Under the pieces are notes generated by a model. The model searched no databases and was not told the DNA's origin. It was given only the letters and a program-made list of their open reading frames with translations. DNA of 64,000 nucleotides, taken from the NCBI GenBank assembly GCA_026388185.1, contig JAPLKG010000008.1:273149-337148 (forward strand), given 5' to 3'. The stretch's first letter is position 1; every line of letters begins with the position of its first letter. Shown in pieces: positions 58,213-64,000 of the stretch. A program made the translations under genes and the position numbers. Origin of the DNA: Candidatus Eiseniibacteriota bacterium. Lineage in GTDB: Bacteria; Eisenbacteria; RBG-16-71-46; JAFGJU01.

Positions 58213-58758
58213 GTGTTTGCCTTCTTATTGGTTCTTCACTTGCTGATAACCGCTGCTCTGGTCATTGTCATTCTGCTTCAATCTGGCAAGGGAGGGGGGC
58301 TCGCCGGAGCATTTGGGGGGGGAGGCGGCAGCCAGACGATTTTCGGCGGCAGGGGTGCTGCGACTTTCTTGAGCAGGTCTACCGCCGTGCTGGGCGCCGC
58401 GTTCATGCTCACTTCCATGAGCTTGGCCCTGCTGACGACTAGGGGTCCAGTGAAGCGAGAGCGGAGCGTGATTGAGAACGTCATCAGGAAGGAGAGGGCG
58501 TCACAGCCCGCCCAGACACCACAAGGCGGAGTTCCTTCAGGGAGTCTTCCTGCGGGGAGAGTTCCGCTTGGGCAAACTCCAATCGGCGGTTCTTCTCAGT
58601 CGACGTCTCCGGCCGGTACTCAGTCAACCGTGACTCCGGGAACGGGACAAGTGGCCCCGGGAGCCGGTGTAGTCCCTAGTCAGACGGCGCCTGCTGCCGG
58701 GACGACGCAACCGACCCAACAGAAGAAGCCAACCGGAACATCGGCTACCGGAAAATAG
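58213..58758 (+). CDS. secG: Preprotein translocase subunit SecG with long low-complexity C-terminal extension
   Basis: GTG start; two TM segments flanking Gly-rich loop (LLQSGKGGGLAGAFGGGGGSQTIFG); ~100-aa Q/T/P/G/S-rich tail; conserved gap-pgk-tpiA-secG-tRNA-Leu order. Confidence 0.8.
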   Translation: MFAFLLVLHLLITAALVIVILLQSGKGGGLAGAFGGGGGSQTIFGGRGAATFLSRSTAVLGAAFMLTSMSLALLTTRGPVKRERSVIENVIRKERASQPAQTPQGGVPSGSLPAGRVPLGQTPIGGSSQSTSPAGTQSTVTPGTGQVAPGAGVVPSQTAPAAGTTQPTQQKKPTGTSATGK

Positions 58759-58777: not shown

Positions 58778-58862
<85 letters not shown>

Positions 58863-58944
58863 TAAATCCCATAACTGCTTGTCGCCGTGTAAGTTGGCAC
58901 GACAGACACTTTTCCTTTTCGCATCCCCAATCAACAGTGACCGA

Positions 58945-59964
58945 TCATCGTACACGCTCCCACTTCCGCACTGTAACTGAGTCTCTAACAGCGAGCATTT
59001 CGTAGATTGAACCGTCTGTCCCTACAATCCAGGGCCCCTTGCCGTAGGTTAAAGTCGAGCGTTCATACCTCGGGAAGTCAATCACGGCGAGCATTCTTCC
59101 ATCTGGAGAATATTTGCTTATCCTTTCGGACGAAGCAGTATCTGTGACCACGAAACTCTGTAGATAGACATTACTCAGACTATCTGTCCCCAAAGAGTCT
59201 CCCGGTAACTCTGCCCAGCCTTTGACCAACTTGCCTTCGTCATCAAACAGAATCGGGTTCCCTTTTACATCCACCTTGCTGTTGCACCGCGCGAAGGACC
59301 GAAAAGGACCTGTGGATGCAAAGATCCCTTCCCGCAAACTCGACAATTGGCTAGAGTCAGGGAGAACTCTTCCCCTTTCCACGAGCTTTATTGATTTCGT
59401 TGCGCGCCAATCGGCTAAATAGACATTCTCATGTTGATCCGACACAATCCCCGCCGAATTGAACTGCGGATACCCCTCTTCCGAACGGCAGAAACTCCAA
59501 GGCACTGCGACTGGCACATTTCTCACTGAATCCACGCCTGCTGCCTTCAAGAACACCCTATATCTGTCCTCCGCATCAGAAGTCTCGCAGAGAATGTATA
59601 TGTCGCCGTTAGGGGGCAGAGTCATGTCCGTGGGAAACAGTAGGTCAACTTGCCAGGCCACGGCCTTGATCGTGTCCACGAATGCTCCATTATTTCCGTA
59701 GACCTTTATGTTTCCTTTCACCCCATCATATATGTAGATGTTCCCATCGGCGCCCATAGTGAAAAATAGAGCCCCGAGATAATTCCCATCGTATCCGTAG
59801 ACCTTCTTCAGTCCGAATTCACTCTCCCCGCCACCGTACTGAGCCTGAATGAGGTTTCGGGGTCTGTAATTCTCGGCCGACAACGCGGTAGCAGGAATGA
59901 GCAAGGCCAAACCCAGCAACGCCGCGATCGATACCAGTCTTGTATTGACTCTCGAACAATCCAT
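58945..59964 (-). CDS. Hypothetical secreted protein, beta-propeller-like repeats; foreign codon usage
   Basis: ATG 59964 (complement) nine nt after AAGGAGG; signal peptide RLVSIAALLGLALLIPATALSAE; repeated GNIYIYDG / GDIYIL / NVYLAD segments; third positions A/T-rich. Confidence 0.5.
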   Translation of the reverse strand: MDCSRVNTRLVSIAALLGLALLIPATALSAENYRPRNLIQAQYGGGESEFGLKKVYGYDGNYLGALFFTMGADGNIYIYDGVKGNIKVYGNNGAFVDTIKAVAWQVDLLFPTDMTLPPNGDIYILCETSDAEDRYRVFLKAAGVDSVRNVPVAVPWSFCRSEEGYPQFNSAGIVSDQHENVYLADWRATKSIKLVERGRVLPDSSQLSSLREGIFASTGPFRSFARCNSKVDVKGNPILFDDEGKLVKGWAELPGDSLGTDSLSNVYLQSFVVTDTASSERISKYSPDGRMLAVIDFPRYERSTLTYGKGPWIVGTDGSIYEMLAVRDSVTVRKWERVR

Positions 59965-60207
59965 CAGCCACACCTCCTTAACTCGGAGAACTGGCGGATA
60001 ACACGCACCCTAGCCCAGGATGGTGATCAAGATACAGGTGCTTTACACTAAACGCCCAGAGAAGCTCAGGAGCGATTCGGGGGACACCGATACACTATAC
60101 TCTCCGATTCCTGTGCTTTGGGTCAACGCGTGACACGAGAGCACGGGATCCGTTCAAAATCCCTGACAGTTTTGCCTGAAGTTGGTCCTGTCGCAACATG
60201 GGTGAAA

Positions 60208-60222
60208 TCCCGCTCCCCGCAC
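60208..60222. repeat. Direct repeat of tRNA-Leu 3' end (candidate att site copy)
   Basis: 15/15 identity to 58846..58860, with flanking partial similarity (GGGTGAAA vs GGGTTCAAC). Confidence 0.7.
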
Positions 60223-60694: not shown

Positions 60695-63600
60695 ATGGCA
60701 CGTCGTGATTTGACCTTTCGCGTTTTTGTTAGTTCCACTTTCAGCGACCTAATTGTCGAACGGAATGCGCTTCATGAGCGCGTATTCCCTAAGCTGCGTG
60801 AGTTGTGCCTTCAGCATAGCTGCCGCTTTCAGGCGATTGACCTGCGTTGGGGTGTGAGCCAAGAAGCGACGCTGGACCAGCAGACCATGAACATCTGCTT
60901 GCAGGAGTTGGAGCGCTGCCGATCAATCACCCCCAGACCGAACTTCATGGTGCTCCTGGGCGACCGTTATGGTTGGCAGCCTTTGCCGCCACAGATCGAA
61001 GCCGGAGAGTTTGAAGCAATTCTGGAATGGGTCTCGCCCGAGGAAAAGAAGCTTCTCCTCTGGGGTGATGATCAACCCAAGGGTTCAAAGGGTTGGTATC
61101 GAAAGGATGAGAACGCGGTTCCTGCCGAATACTGTCTCAGGCCACGTGAGCTCAATGTTCCAGAGAATGTGACTGATAAGGAGAGACGGGGGGCCTTAGA
61201 CCGAGAGGCCAAGGAATGGGAAGAGACAGAAAGGATGTTGCGGTCAATTCTCCTTCGGGCTCTGGACCAGCTTGGCTGGCCCGAGGGTGATCCCCGTCGC
61301 ATCAAGCATGAGTACTCAGCCACGCACCAGGAGATAATAGACGGGGCGTTACGTGTGCCAGATGCGCATGAGCACGTGTACTGCTTTTTCAGGGAAATTG
61401 AGGGGTTGCCAATAGAGTCAAGCGCAAGAGGTTTTATTGACCTTGACGAGACCGGACATCTGGATAGTGATGCGCGTGGGAAGCTACAAAGTCTCAAGCA
61501 AAGCATGCGTGATCTCTTGCCCGGCAACGTACGTGAGTACAAGGTGGGATGGGCTGGACGGGGCGTTACGACAGAGCATTTGAACGAGCTCTGCGATGAC
61601 GTTTACAGTGGGTTATCGCGCGTGATACTGGAACAGATCCGGACACTTGAGAAGGTAGATGAGCTGAAAACGGAAATCGAAGAACATGAGTCCTGGGGTA
61701 AGGAACGCGCGCGATTTTTCACCGGTCGAACAAGCATCCTACAACGAATAAGTGATTACCTGAGAGGCACAGATACTCATCCGTTGGCTATCTTCGGTGT
61801 GTCTGGTTCTGGCAAGACAGCGCTGATGGCACACGCGGCACAAAAAGCGCGGGAGATGCTTCCCGGTGCCCGAGTCGTCGTGCGTTTCATAGGTGCTACC
61901 CCGGGCTCATCAGACGGGCGTTCCGTGTTGGAAGACGCCTGTCGTCACATATACAGAGTATTCGATTTTGAAGAACAAAAACAGAACCTCCTTATTGACG
62001 TGCGAGAGATTGGTGAAGAGGAACATAAGAAACGGCAGCGTATTAAGGACGAGTATTCCATCCCCACGGAGTTTCAGAAGCTTTGCGTAACTTTCCAGGA
62101 GTTCGTTGCGAAGATACCACGGTCAGAGAGCCTAATCCTCTTTCTGGATGCTTTGGAGCAACTTTCCGAAAGTGACGACGCGAGAAGCCTCTCCTGGTTA
62201 CCCACTGAACTGCCCCCGAATGTGCGCCTCATTGTTTCATGCCTTGTGGGCAAGTGTCTCTCAGTGCTCCAGGAAGCGCTGCCCGCTGCAAACCTTGTGG
62301 AGTTGGGGTCAATGGAGCCTCAAGAAGGTGAGAGACTCTTGGACCTCTGGCTCCAAGATGCCCGAAGGACTCTTCAGCCTCGGCAGGGGACAGAGATCTT
62401 GGCGAAGTTCCGGAAATGTGCTCTCCCTTTGTATATGAGACTTGCATTTGAGGAGGTCAGGCTCTGGAAGTCTCATACCGAACAGAAAGAGCTGGGTCTC
62501 GACATAGGAGGCGTCATCGGCAACTTATTCCAACGGCTTTCGTCGGATGCGAACCACGGGAGAGTGGTGGTTTCGCGCAGCTTGGGATATCTGGCCGCTG
62601 CGAAGAACGGCCTCGCCGAAGATGAATTGCTGGACATTCTGTCCCAGGATGAAGAGGTTGTGGCAGACTTCCTGCGCCGTTCGCCGCGGTCGCCGCGTGT
62701 TAAGCAGCTGCCTGTTGCCGTGTGGTCGCGCCTGTACTTCGAGCTCAAACCATACTTGACCGAGCGGCGCGCCGATCGGACGTCCCTGCTTGGGTTCTAT
62801 CATATGCAGGTGCGACAGGTCGTGACGGAAAGATACCTGCAGCGTGAGCGGGAACAGATAGTCCGGGACGGGCTGATCCAGTACTTTGGCTGTCAGCCTC
62901 ACCAGCTAGTTGATTCCGCGGGAGGCAAGGCACCCAATGCTCGCAAACTCTCGGAATTGCCCTTTGCCCTTCGACGGTCATGCAGATGGATTGAGCTATC
63001 TGTGCTCTTGACCGACTACGATTTCGTGGAAGCCGAGGTGCAAGCCGGAATGGTCATCGATCTCGTCGGACACTATGGCGAGATTCTGGCAGCAGGGACG
63101 TCGCGGCTGGAAGGGCAGGAGGAGGTACAACTCAGAGCTTGGGCTAACTTCGTGAGGAGCTCGGCTCACCTGCTACTACGCGGCGATGACCCATTTTTTC
63201 AGCTGGCCCTTAACCACGCCGATCGTGGCCCCGTGGTTGCCGCGGCTGAGGAGAGGGCTAGATATCATCCGGGACCGTGGCTCCGCCTGCTCAACCGACC
63301 TGTGCAGGCACAGTACCCGGCATGCTTCCGCACACTGGAAGGCCACACGGACGGCGTTAGTGCACTAGCCTTGACGCCGGATGGTCGCAGGATTGTCTCC
63401 GGTAGCGCTGATCGAACCTTGCGGCTTTGGGACCTTGAGAGCGGGCAATGCGTTCGTACCTTAGGAAAAGACATCGAGACGATAGAGTCCCTTGAAGTCT
63501 CGCCGGACGGTCGGCGCGTGGTTTCAAGTTGCAGATACAGAACGGTACGCGTGTGGGATCTCGAAGGTGGACGGTGTTTGCGCACTTACCGCGGGGGGTG

Positions 63601-64000
63601 GGGAGTGACCGAAAAGGTCACTGTCACTCCGGACGCCCACCTGGCGATATCTTACAGGGTGGACAGACGATTGACTAGGTGTGGTGGCCCTTTGAAACTG
63701 GACGGCACTTTGCGGGTGTGGGACTTGGATGTGGGTGACTGCGTGCGTAGCCTGGTTGGGCATCGTGAGCGGGTCCGAGCTGTTGTGGTAAGCGCAGATG
63801 GGCAAATCGCGCTCTCGGTCGGAGAGGATGGCATCAGGGTTTGGGCGTTGCGTACGGGCCAATGCCTGTGGCTCCTGGGGCGGGCCTCGACCTGGGTGGT
63901 CGCGATGACGCCGGACGGCCACCGCGCGGTCACGTGCAGCTTTGGGGAAGAGGCTCTGCGTATCTGGGATCTCAGTAGCGGGAGATCTTTGCAGACGTTC
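60695..64000 (+). CDS. STAND-type P-loop NTPase (NACHT-like) with DUF4062-like N-terminal domain and C-terminal WD40 repeats; 3'-partial, runs off window
   Basis: Not in ORF track (no stop in window). Hand translation from ATG 60695 is open to nt 64000: MARRDLTFRVFVSSTFSDLIVERNALHERVFPKL...; Walker A IFGVSGSGKTALMAHAAQ near nt 61800; WD40 repeats from ~63330 (GHTDGVSALALTPDGRRIVSGSADRTLRLWDL..., LRVWDLD, LRIWDLS). A/T-ending codons. Confidence 0.75.
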   Translation, partial: MARRDLTFRVFVSSTFSDLIVERNALHERVFPKLRELCLQHSCRFQAIDLRWGVSQEATLDQQTMNICLQELERCRSITPRPNFMVLLGDRYGWQPLPPQIEAGEFEAILEWVSPEEKKLLLWGDDQPKGSKGWYRKDENAVPAEYCLRPRELNVPENVTDKERRGALDREAKEWEETERMLRSILLRALDQLGWPEGDPRRIKHEYSATHQEIIDGALRVPDAHEHVYCFFREIEGLPIESSARGFIDLDETGHLDSDARGKLQSLKQSMRDLLPGNVREYKVGWAGRGVTTEHLNELCDDVYSGLSRVILEQIRTLEKVDELKTEIEEHESWGKERARFFTGRTSILQRISDYLRGTDTHPLAIFGVSGSGKTALMAHAAQKAREMLPGARVVVRFIGATPGSSDGRSVLEDACRHIYRVFDFEEQKQNLLIDVREIGEEEHKKRQRIKDEYSIPTEFQKLCVTFQEFVAKIPRSESLILFLDALEQLSESDDARSLSWLPTELPPNVRLIVSCLVGKCLSVLQEALPAANLVELGSMEPQEGERLLDLWLQDARRTLQPRQGTEILAKFRKCALPLYMRLAFEEVRLWKSHTEQKELGLDIGGVIGNLFQRLSSDANHGRVVVSRSLGYLAAAKNGLAEDELLDILSQDEEVVADFLRRSPRSPRVKQLPVAVWSRLYFELKPYLTERRADRTSLLGFYHMQVRQVVTERYLQREREQIVRDGLIQYFGCQPHQLVDSAGGKAPNARKLSELPFALRRSCRWIELSVLLTDYDFVEAEVQAGMVIDLVGHYGEILAAGTSRLEGQEEVQLRAWANFVRSSAHLLLRGDDPFFQLALNHADRGPVVAAAEERARYHPGPWLRLLNRPVQAQYPACFRTLEGHTDGVSALALTPDGRRIVSGSADRTLRLWDLESGQCVRTLGKDIETIESLEVSPDGRRVVSSCRYRTVRVWDLEGGRCLRTYRGGWGVTEKVTVTPDAHLAISYRVDRRLTRCGGPLKLDGTLRVWDLDVGDCVRSLVGHRERVRAVVVSADGQIALSVGEDGIRVWALRTGQCLWLLGRASTWVVAMTPDGHRAVTCSFGEEALRIWDLSSGRSLQTF

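Follow-up and report, generated by a model that had tools for sequence, protein, structure and literature searches.

The locus considered here, part of a 64,000-nt stretch of a Candidatus Eisenbacteria genome (the window), raises the question of why a minus-strand open reading frame lies between an intact tRNA-Leu gene and a partial copy of that gene's 3′ end: is the frame a gene, what would its product do, and how did it come to be there? We consider it probable that it encodes an exported six-bladed NHL propeller and that this is the single cargo of an integrase-less module in an array at tRNA-Leu(GAG). The features concerned are listed by position and strand, with the evidence in brackets.

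58778–58862, plus strand: tRNA-Leu(GAG) with encoded CCA, directly after secG; proximal array boundary (ARAGORN; Rfam tRNA, 51.4 bits)
58838–58860, plus strand: 3′ segment of the tRNA (3′ half of the T-arm and 3′ strand of the acceptor), an attL-like core (repeat search)
58880–58908, no strand assigned: imperfect hairpin between the NHL stop codon and the tRNA 3′ end (folding; left-flank alignment)
58945–59964, minus strand: coding sequence of 339 aa for a predicted exported NHL-type six-bladed beta-propeller (homologues, AF2 model, profiles, dN/dS)
59875–59964, minus strand: part coding for the putative signal peptide, about residues 1–27 or 1–30 (n/h/c pattern)
59973–59979, minus strand: Shine-Dalgarno sequence AAGGAGG (sequence; 8 nt before the ATG)
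60079–60207, minus strand: conserved arm ("ext") adjoining the tRNA-like core (alignment of 16–19 copies from 12 loci)
60200–60222, plus strand: partial copy of the tRNA-Leu 3′ end, an attR-like core; distal boundary of the NHL module (repeat search)
60695–64000, plus strand: STAND NTPase, the start of the next module's cargo (Pfam; same-genome contig L027)

The minus-strand gene and its product

Conservation of the frame in other genomes suggests that it is translated and selected for its product. The 339-aa translation is 100% identical to NTX17_04240, an NCBI MAG protein from Candidatus Eisenbacteria, and a search of a large protein collection returned nine homologues (43–78% identity), none of them annotated and all on Eisenbacteria-type contigs. 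A second indexed search with the alignment as query found the same ten proteins and nothing further; the alignment of these ten family members has 56 invariant columns. Against five homologues, dN/dS was 0.20–0.32, compared with 0.06–0.12 for the flanking tpiA and pgk; on these ratios the NHL gene is under purifying selection, less strict than that on housekeeping genes. The ATG start codon occupies 59964–59962 (minus strand), and the strong ribosome-binding site announced in the original prediction is present at 59979–59973 (AAGGAGG), with a spacer of 8 nt. An in-frame GTG three codons 5′ of this ATG overlaps the ribosome-binding site and is an unlikely start.

The possibility that the frame is a chance opening, or the shadow of a gene on the opposite strand, is already refuted by the data and has a negligible probability. 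Its sole support is that long spurious frames are generally abundant in a window of 56% GC; against it stand homologues on at least nine other contigs that are under purifying selection, the strong ribosome-binding site together with a confidently predicted fold, and a longest opposite-strand frame of at most 80 aa. Judged by these sequence comparisons, the flagged frame is a genuine gene. It had also been called the only minus-strand gene in the window, and none of the five longest other minus-strand frames has a Pfam match, so this description stands as far as tested, the check not being exhaustive; three of those five overlap plus-strand frames that score as LptC, ABC_tran and CoaE.

The gene's composition had been described as strongly A/T-biased at third codon positions and unlike that of every host gene. 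The second half of this description is correct: GC3 is 0.565, approximately 4 sd under the mean of the 41 plus-strand genes tested (0.676, sd 0.028) and lower than the lowest of them (0.608), and overall GC is 0.508 versus 0.566. A GC3 of 0.565 does not amount to an A/T bias, and that half has to be dropped.

Assignment of the protein to a fold family draws on profiles and on a predicted structure. As a single sequence it reaches 13.1 bits against Pfam NHL (PF01436) over residues 109–126, under the 20-bit cutoff (E 0.11). An AF2 model computed on the family alignment (pLDDT 75.5, pTM 0.76) is all-beta with approximately 23 strands, and its poorly predicted parts are confined to the putative signal peptide and residues 218–237, a disordered stretch in blade 4. 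The modelled fold is a six-bladed propeller nearest to solved NHL domains, with structure matches to Mei-P26 (7nyq, 17.9), Brat (1q7f, 16.8), NHL-2 (8suc, 16.7) and the extracellular sensor domain of Mycobacterium tuberculosis PknD (1rwi, 15.9).

Searched against 1.84 billion representatives, the family profile matched 2508 proteins at E≤1e-3, and many of the matches listed are large multi-repeat proteins, hit repeatedly through profile positions 56–135. P0014, P0019, P0024, P0025 and P0029 match the profile at 1e-33 to 1e-21, and all five of the large multi-repeat matches that were checked are Pfam NHL proteins (1e-57 to 1e-143). Among PDB sequences, the profile finds the NHL domains of TRIM2, TRIM3, TRIM71 and Thin (E 5.5e-8 to 1e-2). 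From these profile and structure matches, therefore, the protein is a divergent stand-alone NHL-type propeller, predicted to be exported. The beta-propeller-like fold proposed from the repeated motifs was correct, and the homology search suggested for NHL- or YVTN-type propellers leads to the NHL superfamily both by profile and by structure. The accompanying statement that the protein has no recognisable function still holds for its ligand and activity; its class can now be given as that of a divergent NHL-repeat propeller.

Export is suggested by the N-terminus, which reads MDCSRVNTR, then LVSIAALLGLALLIPA, then TALSA|E. The n-region has two Arg, the hydrophobic core spans 16 residues with a 12-residue Kyte-Doolittle maximum of 2.68, and candidate cleavage sites with small residues lie at ATA|L or LSA|E; no lipobox was found in this N-terminus. 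All 10 family members keep the n/h/c organisation as a pattern and not as a sequence (manual and hydropathy analysis), in agreement with the signal peptide originally claimed. In the AF2 model a low-confidence N-terminal helix covers residues 6–21, and the first strand begins at residue 32.

Genes for LptC and an LptB-type ABC ATPase are present in the host. The Lpt pathway implies an outer membrane, and export would therefore reach the periplasm or beyond. A Pfam scan of the NHL protein found no T9SS C-terminal sorting domain (Por_Secre_tail or FlgD_ig-type CTD), and its C-terminus is the final propeller strand of the AF2 model; T9SS sorting domains are present in neighbouring proteins in L002, L007 and L029. 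We infer from these sequence features that the protein is soluble and passes via Sec to the periplasm or cell envelope. The mature form would be a single-domain, soluble, Sec-exported protein of approximately 310 aa.

The tRNA-Leu array and its composite site

The bounds of the islet, as originally described, are the tRNA and a copy of its 3′ end: 58838–58860 and 60200–60222 are identical at 20 of 23 positions, the 15-mer TCCCGCTCCCCGCAC being exact at 58846–58860 and 60208–60222, and the arrangement recurs in other genomes. Between them lies no substantial frame other than the NHL gene, and its description as sole cargo is upheld. The hairpin at 58880–58908, which separates its stop codon from the tRNA 3′ end, may be a bidirectional terminator; its folding z-score is not significant in the window and is -1.6 in L001 and L003.

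Beyond the distal repeat begins a gene for a STAND NTPase with DUF4062, AAA_16/nSTAND1, an NWD1-type winged helix and WD40 (Pfam). The same-genome contig L027 carries the full gene, which encodes 1588 aa and ends at about 65461, beyond the window. Also outside the window, a third repeat copy lies 3′ of the STAND gene at about 65658–65672, and past it come genes for a RelA_SpoT-TPR-RyR protein and a NUDIX protein. With L027 included, the tRNA-Leu gene is followed first by the NHL module (1.36 kb), next by the STAND module (5.45 kb) and then by further genes. Co-occurrence of the propeller gene with the STAND gene, put forward as something to look for, was not borne out: the STAND gene forms a separate module with its own repeat, and NHL modules elsewhere have different neighbours. 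Apart from this link and the A/T bias, the original reading is supported.

The repeat copy belongs to a longer composite site of approximately 145–200 nt. In the sense of the NHL gene, this usually consists of a hairpin, then TGGTGCGGGGAGCGGGATT, then a non-tRNA arm of approximately 130 nt. Here TGGTGCGGGGAGCGGGATT is the tRNA 3′ end with its CCA, read as the reverse complement, and the tRNA-like copy spans 17–19 nt. The arm contains the invariant blocks TGCGGGGAGC and CCATATTGCGAC as well as further conserved stretches, and the element can be written as the motif TGCGGGGAGCNNGA-N10-RTTGCGA. Hairpins homologous to that at 58880–58908 precede most repeat copies in other genomes. The element lies 105–260 nt upstream of every group-A family member, group A being the window gene, P0002, P0003, P0004, P0005, P0009, P0010 and the partial genes in L014 and L023.

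A structured RNA in the arm was considered and rejected: alignment folding with RNAalifold revealed no shared fold, be it on one strand or the other (-1.5 and -0.3 kcal/mol), single-sequence z-scores were unremarkable, and an Rfam scan returned the tRNA only, with no match in the arm. The lack of RNA structure and of an Rfam match fits a site that works at the DNA level. In gene sense the arm holds TTGCGA-N17-(A/T)A(A/G)A(C/T)T, which in the window copy is TTGCGA-N17-AAAACT. A scan for sigma-70 promoters and terminators found none above shuffled expectation in the arm or upstream of the NHL gene, and reading TTGCGA-N17-AAAACT as a promoter is therefore only a suggestion. The arm is a putative recombination-site arm, a putative promoter, or both.

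Several other genomes share the arrangement of the window. An intact tRNA followed by the 3′-end repeat also occurs in L001, L002, L003, L006 and L031, the secG–tRNA-Leu arrangement is shared by L001–L006, L018 and L022, and in L001–L006 the NHL gene is convergent to gap-pgk-tpiA-secG-tRNA-Leu, as in the window. The NHL gene adjoins secG–tRNA-Leu in most carriers, which might also reflect old, stable synteny. Three family members (P0006–P0008) lie outside tRNA arrays. Among GTDB representatives, a scan with the motif gave one real match, on the chromosome of Eiseniibacteriota bin56 (CP070702.1) and away from tRNAs; the other five matches look like chance.

The same core and arm separate other cargos in L001, L002, L003, L020, L031 and the window's own genome. 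Found as cargo, besides the STAND NTPase, are a 212-aa secreted protein (L001, L022), a Lectin_C+FlgD_ig protein (L002), HicA/HicB/DUF6941 with three small frames (L003), DUF4145 with HicB and DUF6941 (L020), and an ABC transporter (L023). An array may consist of a single module, as in L022, or of at least three, as in L002 and L003, and L002 has two diverged NHL paralogues, P0003 and P0010. Module number, order and cargo differ between genomes.

Transfer and probable mobility of the module, and possible role of its product

Divergence of the NHL gene does not follow that of its neighbours. Between the window and L001, the NHL proteins are 78.5% identical with a dS of 0.40, and TpiA and Pgk are 79% and 77% identical with a dS of 2.0 and 2.9 for tpiA and pgk; between the window and L003, the NHL proteins are 59% identical with a dS of 1.05, and TpiA and Pgk are 90% and 84% identical with a tpiA/pgk dS of about 0.8. 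The dS and identity values of the NHL gene are at odds with those of the flanking genes, and thus its history is uncoupled from theirs. The dS of 0.40 against 2.0 and 2.9 for tpiA and pgk indicates horizontal transfer. Composition is likewise constant in the cargo and variable around it: GC3 of the NHL gene is 0.57–0.64 in every host, and that of host tpiA/pgk is 0.65–0.87.

The limits of shared sequence coincide with the repeats. Between the window and L001, nucleotide homology (83%) starts at the ribosome-binding site, 15 nt 5′ of the ATG, covers the coding sequence with its 3′ flank and stops at the next core. Right of the core, L022 is 81% identical to L001 at the nucleotide level across the 212-aa module, tRNA, secG, tpiA and pgk; on the left side, it carries an unrelated 541-aa gene in place of the NHL module of L001. 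This close relative thus lacks the NHL module, with the breakpoint at the repeat. The HicB-DUF6941 unit, 90% identical at the nucleotide level in L003 and L020, also ends at the next core. The view of the NHL gene as foreign cargo is strengthened because dS is incongruent, L022 lacks the module, and the same repeat bounds other cargos. From this pattern of presence and absence, the module appears to move between genomes.

A contrary account, in which the NHL gene is specific to this lineage and has been inherited vertically at the secG–tRNA-Leu locus and the repeat is a shared promoter or operator and not a recombination site, could explain why the position convergent to secG–tRNA-Leu is kept in the window and L001–L006, and why TTGCGA-N17-(A/T)A(A/G)A(C/T)T stands in sense orientation 105–260 nt upstream of the gene. 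We nevertheless regard it as very unlikely: NHL dS and GC3 clash with those of the flanking genes, module order is variable, and the absence of the module in L022 has its breakpoint at the core. Furthermore, the element also bounds cargo on the opposite strand (STAND, 212-aa protein, lectin protein, ABC transporter), it contains an exact tRNA 3′ end, and the promoter scan is silent at the site.

Our preferred interpretation, a transferred module at the tRNA, suggests the following history. The 1.36-kb integrase-less module carries the NHL gene as its lone cargo and belongs to a tandem series of modules that has accumulated at the secG-linked tRNA-Leu(GAG), on its 3′ end, in one Candidatus Eisenbacteria clade. 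Each is delimited by the composite site of hairpin, 17–19-nt tRNA copy and non-tRNA arm, and the present layout, an intact tRNA at one end and partial 3′ copies that are each followed by element-derived arm sequence, may be the leftover of repeated site-specific integration into the T-loop and 3′ end of the tRNA. The modules probably move by means of an unlinked recombinase acting in trans or by homologous recombination between repeats of approximately 150–200 nt; such recombination could delete modules and, after DNA uptake, insert them.

An integrase is absent from the module, the 64-kb window and the arrays examined. In L016, a truncated tyrosine recombinase (residues 9–167 of 285), a sign of decay, lies approximately 740 nt from a repeat copy, and intact relatives of it adjoin the group-B NHL genes (P0006, P0008) together with ParB and methyltransferase genes, in a context with neither the motif nor a tRNA. 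A tblastn search with the L029 recombinase found no match in the window or the arrays apart from the L016 fragment. Members of this candidate family occur beside group-B NHL genes in both L029 and L032, the L016 member being the truncated one. We hypothesize that the L016/L029 recombinase family may act on the tRNA-like site. A bolder proposal, which we judge unlikely, is that the tRNA-Leu(GAG) locus is a cassette platform whose integrase-less single-gene units, each with a site of roughly 200 nt that resembles the tRNA 3′ end, are captured and shuffled in trans by an unlinked tyrosine recombinase of XerC/D size. If this were true, the locus would be a tRNA-anchored, integron-like gene-capture system and the NHL propeller a recurrent cassette.

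The best guess for the role of the protein is non-catalytic ligand binding in the cell envelope, possibly of glycans or surface components, because nearby lectin-type and beta-helix proteins carry T9SS sorting domains. Secreted proteins of glycan type recur as neighbours: in group B, the NHL gene is followed by genes for a NosD-like beta-helix protein that bears a T9SS sorting domain and for a weakly CBM96-like protein, and in L002 the Lectin_C+FlgD_ig protein sits between the two NHL genes. Could the protein instead be an exported six-bladed-propeller enzyme, similar to lactonases/SGL, peptidyl-hydroxyglycine lyases, virginiamycin B lyases or strictosidine synthases? This seems rather unlikely, given that its best matches by both structure and sequence are non-catalytic NHL domains, among the nearest structures a bacterial extracytoplasmic sensor domain, that the 56 invariant columns of the 10-member alignment include no cluster of His or Cys like the one that coordinates the catalytic metal of PAL, and that the protein has no direct match to any enzyme family in Pfam or NCBIfam.

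Array cargo that includes a STAND NTPase, HicAB and DUF4145, along with RelA_SpoT and NUDIX proteins matching the PADLOC candidates PDC-S33 and PDC-S07, could alternatively point to an anti-phage or exclusion component that works with the adjoining STAND NTPase or as an envelope-level barrier to phage. The chance of this is slim: the STAND gene occupies its own repeat-bounded module, the neighbours of NHL modules elsewhere are unrelated, and IMG/VR contigs hold no relatives of the NHL protein. A defence or phage annotation of the protein itself was rejected, PADLOC and PHROGs both being negative, as was a phage origin, since IMG/VR contigs contained neither family relatives nor the DNA motif of the element.

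Comparison with known propellers and island systems

Compared with the NHL domains of PknD (1RWI), Brat (1Q7F) and Mei-P26 (7NYQ), the protein described here is stand-alone and putatively secreted, and it lacks the kinase, TRIM or other partner domain of PknD and TRIM-NHL proteins. Its blade 4 carries a long, poorly predicted insertion, which sets it apart from known NHL propellers, and unlike members of PF01436 it scores under the Pfam threshold as a single sequence. Unlike the NHL superfamily at large, the family has so far been found only on Eisenbacteria-type contigs, and the gene adds a small phylum-restricted branch to that superfamily. ScyF (NCBIfam NF035926), a periplasmic NHL protein of scytonemin biosynthesis, is likewise an exported bacterial NHL-type protein. 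Membership of ScyF was rejected: the protein scores 19.8 bits where the cutoff is 350, the local match is weak (E 3.6e-4), the NHL protein has no PEP-CTERM anchor, and scytonemin genes are not nearby. A 334-aa neighbour in L029, considered as an NHL paralogue, was also rejected.

Integron cassettes and the pdif (Xer-site-bounded) modules of Acinetobacter plasmids form arrays of single-gene units that lack a recombinase of their own and each carry a recombination-site-like repeat. The small, recombinase-less units described here, each with a site-like repeat, are similar in this respect. They differ from integrons in having no intI/attI platform and no adjacent integrase, and their repeat differs from attC in lacking a conserved folded structure (-1.5 and -0.3 kcal/mol). 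In contrast to pdif, it is not an inverted XerC/XerD pair and mimics a tRNA 3′ end.

What looked like an orphan secreted protein appears to pass between Eisenbacteria genomes as a unit. The array is a clean, compact case of tRNA-anchored island growth in an uncultured phylum, with a long conserved site and sharply defined units that comprise one or a few genes, and the locus would be convenient for finding the responsible recombinase and for cataloguing the genes that are traded (defence, toxin-antitoxin, secreted). No current view is overturned by the array or the gene.

The closest parallels are with tandem, partly integrase-less islands that grow at tRNA or tmRNA genes. Tandem ssrA islands of Dehalococcoides are bounded by 20-bp repeats with an extra conserved motif beside the repeat, and 15 of them, without an integration module, have been read as cis-mobilizable elements (PMC3146451). 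The tRNA-seeded (tycheposon) islands of Prochlorococcus show successive integrations with partial tRNAs between them and degenerate remnants (bioRxiv 10.1101/2020.12.28.424599). Similar to both, the array described here has an intact RNA gene at one end and partial 3′-end copies between units, next to the repeat a further conserved motif that does not come from the RNA gene, and a number and content of units that vary between strains, some units lacking an integration module. It differs in host phylum, in its very small units (1.1–5.5 kb, often one gene), in its long conserved arm (approximately 130 nt), and in that no array here has an intact integrase, mobility being suggested by comparison only. 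The islet is a further example of the familiar tRNA-anchored, partly integrase-less island array and not a new system; what is unusual is a matter of degree, namely the very small size of its units and the length of its conserved site.

Further modules bounded by the tRNA-like element, and genes beyond them

Beside the NHL-type propeller module, two copies of the tRNA-like element (a copy of the tRNA-Leu(GAG) 3' end plus a conserved arm) bound a 5.45-kb module with a single cargo gene, which encodes a STAND NTPase with an N-terminal DUF4062 domain, an AAA_16/nSTAND1 domain, an NWD1-type winged helix and WD40 repeats. Like that of the NHL gene, its GC3 (0.604) falls at the low edge relative to host genes. 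Just beyond the third repeat copy, on L027, the window's own genome encodes a RelA_SpoT-TPR-RyR protein and a NUDIX protein, which match two candidate defence families of PADLOC, PDC-S33 and PDC-S07.

Window 60695-64000, continuing outside it to about 65461 (L027 3798-8564): STAND NTPase, 1588 aa
L027 473-3469 (about window 65790-68786, past the window end): RelA_SpoT + TPR + RyR-domain protein (829 aa) and NUDIX protein
L003 4333-5884 and L020 6978-8536: HicB + DUF6941 unit

The last of these is common to two genomes (90% nucleotide identity) and ends at a repeat core in both. One genome has HicA ahead of it, the other a DUF4145 protein.

Element copies, recombinases and a second propeller context

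L013 3790-3844 (CP070702.1, Candidatus Eiseniibacteriota bin56 chromosome): tRNA-like element copy
L016 1114-1539, minus strand: truncated tyrosine recombinase, N-terminal half only
L029 3140-10900, L032 1225-9814 and L007 1074-6028: second genomic context of the propeller family (P0006-P0008)

The bin56 copy is flanked by a Ser/Thr kinase-TPR gene, also the left neighbour in L006, and on the other side by adenosine deaminase/rubrerythrin genes; no tRNA was found within 8 kb. It may represent a rearranged array or, alternatively, an element used away from a tRNA. On L016, another copy (motif 312-326) lies about 740 nt from the recombinase fragment, which is 70% identical to the integrase of L029. 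A motif match at L015 1045-1242 was rejected as chance; this locus is a CRISPR-like array (ATCCCCGCGCGTGCGGGGAGCAG at a 61-nt period) that adjoins tRNA-Leu(CAG) and is unrelated to the NHL islet.

The context of homologues P0006-P0008 contains neither a tRNA nor the motif. It includes an intact XerC/D-like tyrosine recombinase (285 aa), ParB/N6_N4 methyltransferase genes and, on L029, a 540-aa ORF with a weak terminase-like match. Downstream, one gene encodes a beta-helix protein that resembles NosD and bears a T9SS sorting domain, and another a protein with weak similarity to CBM96. It is possible that the same propeller travels here on an autonomous mobile element.

SecG and tRNA-Leu

Window 58213-58758: SecG, 181 aa

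This protein comprises a 70-residue SecG domain and a long C-terminal extension rich in Pro/Thr/Gly/Gln. In the window, secG followed by tRNA-Leu(GAG) mirrors the secG-leuU arrangement of E. coli.
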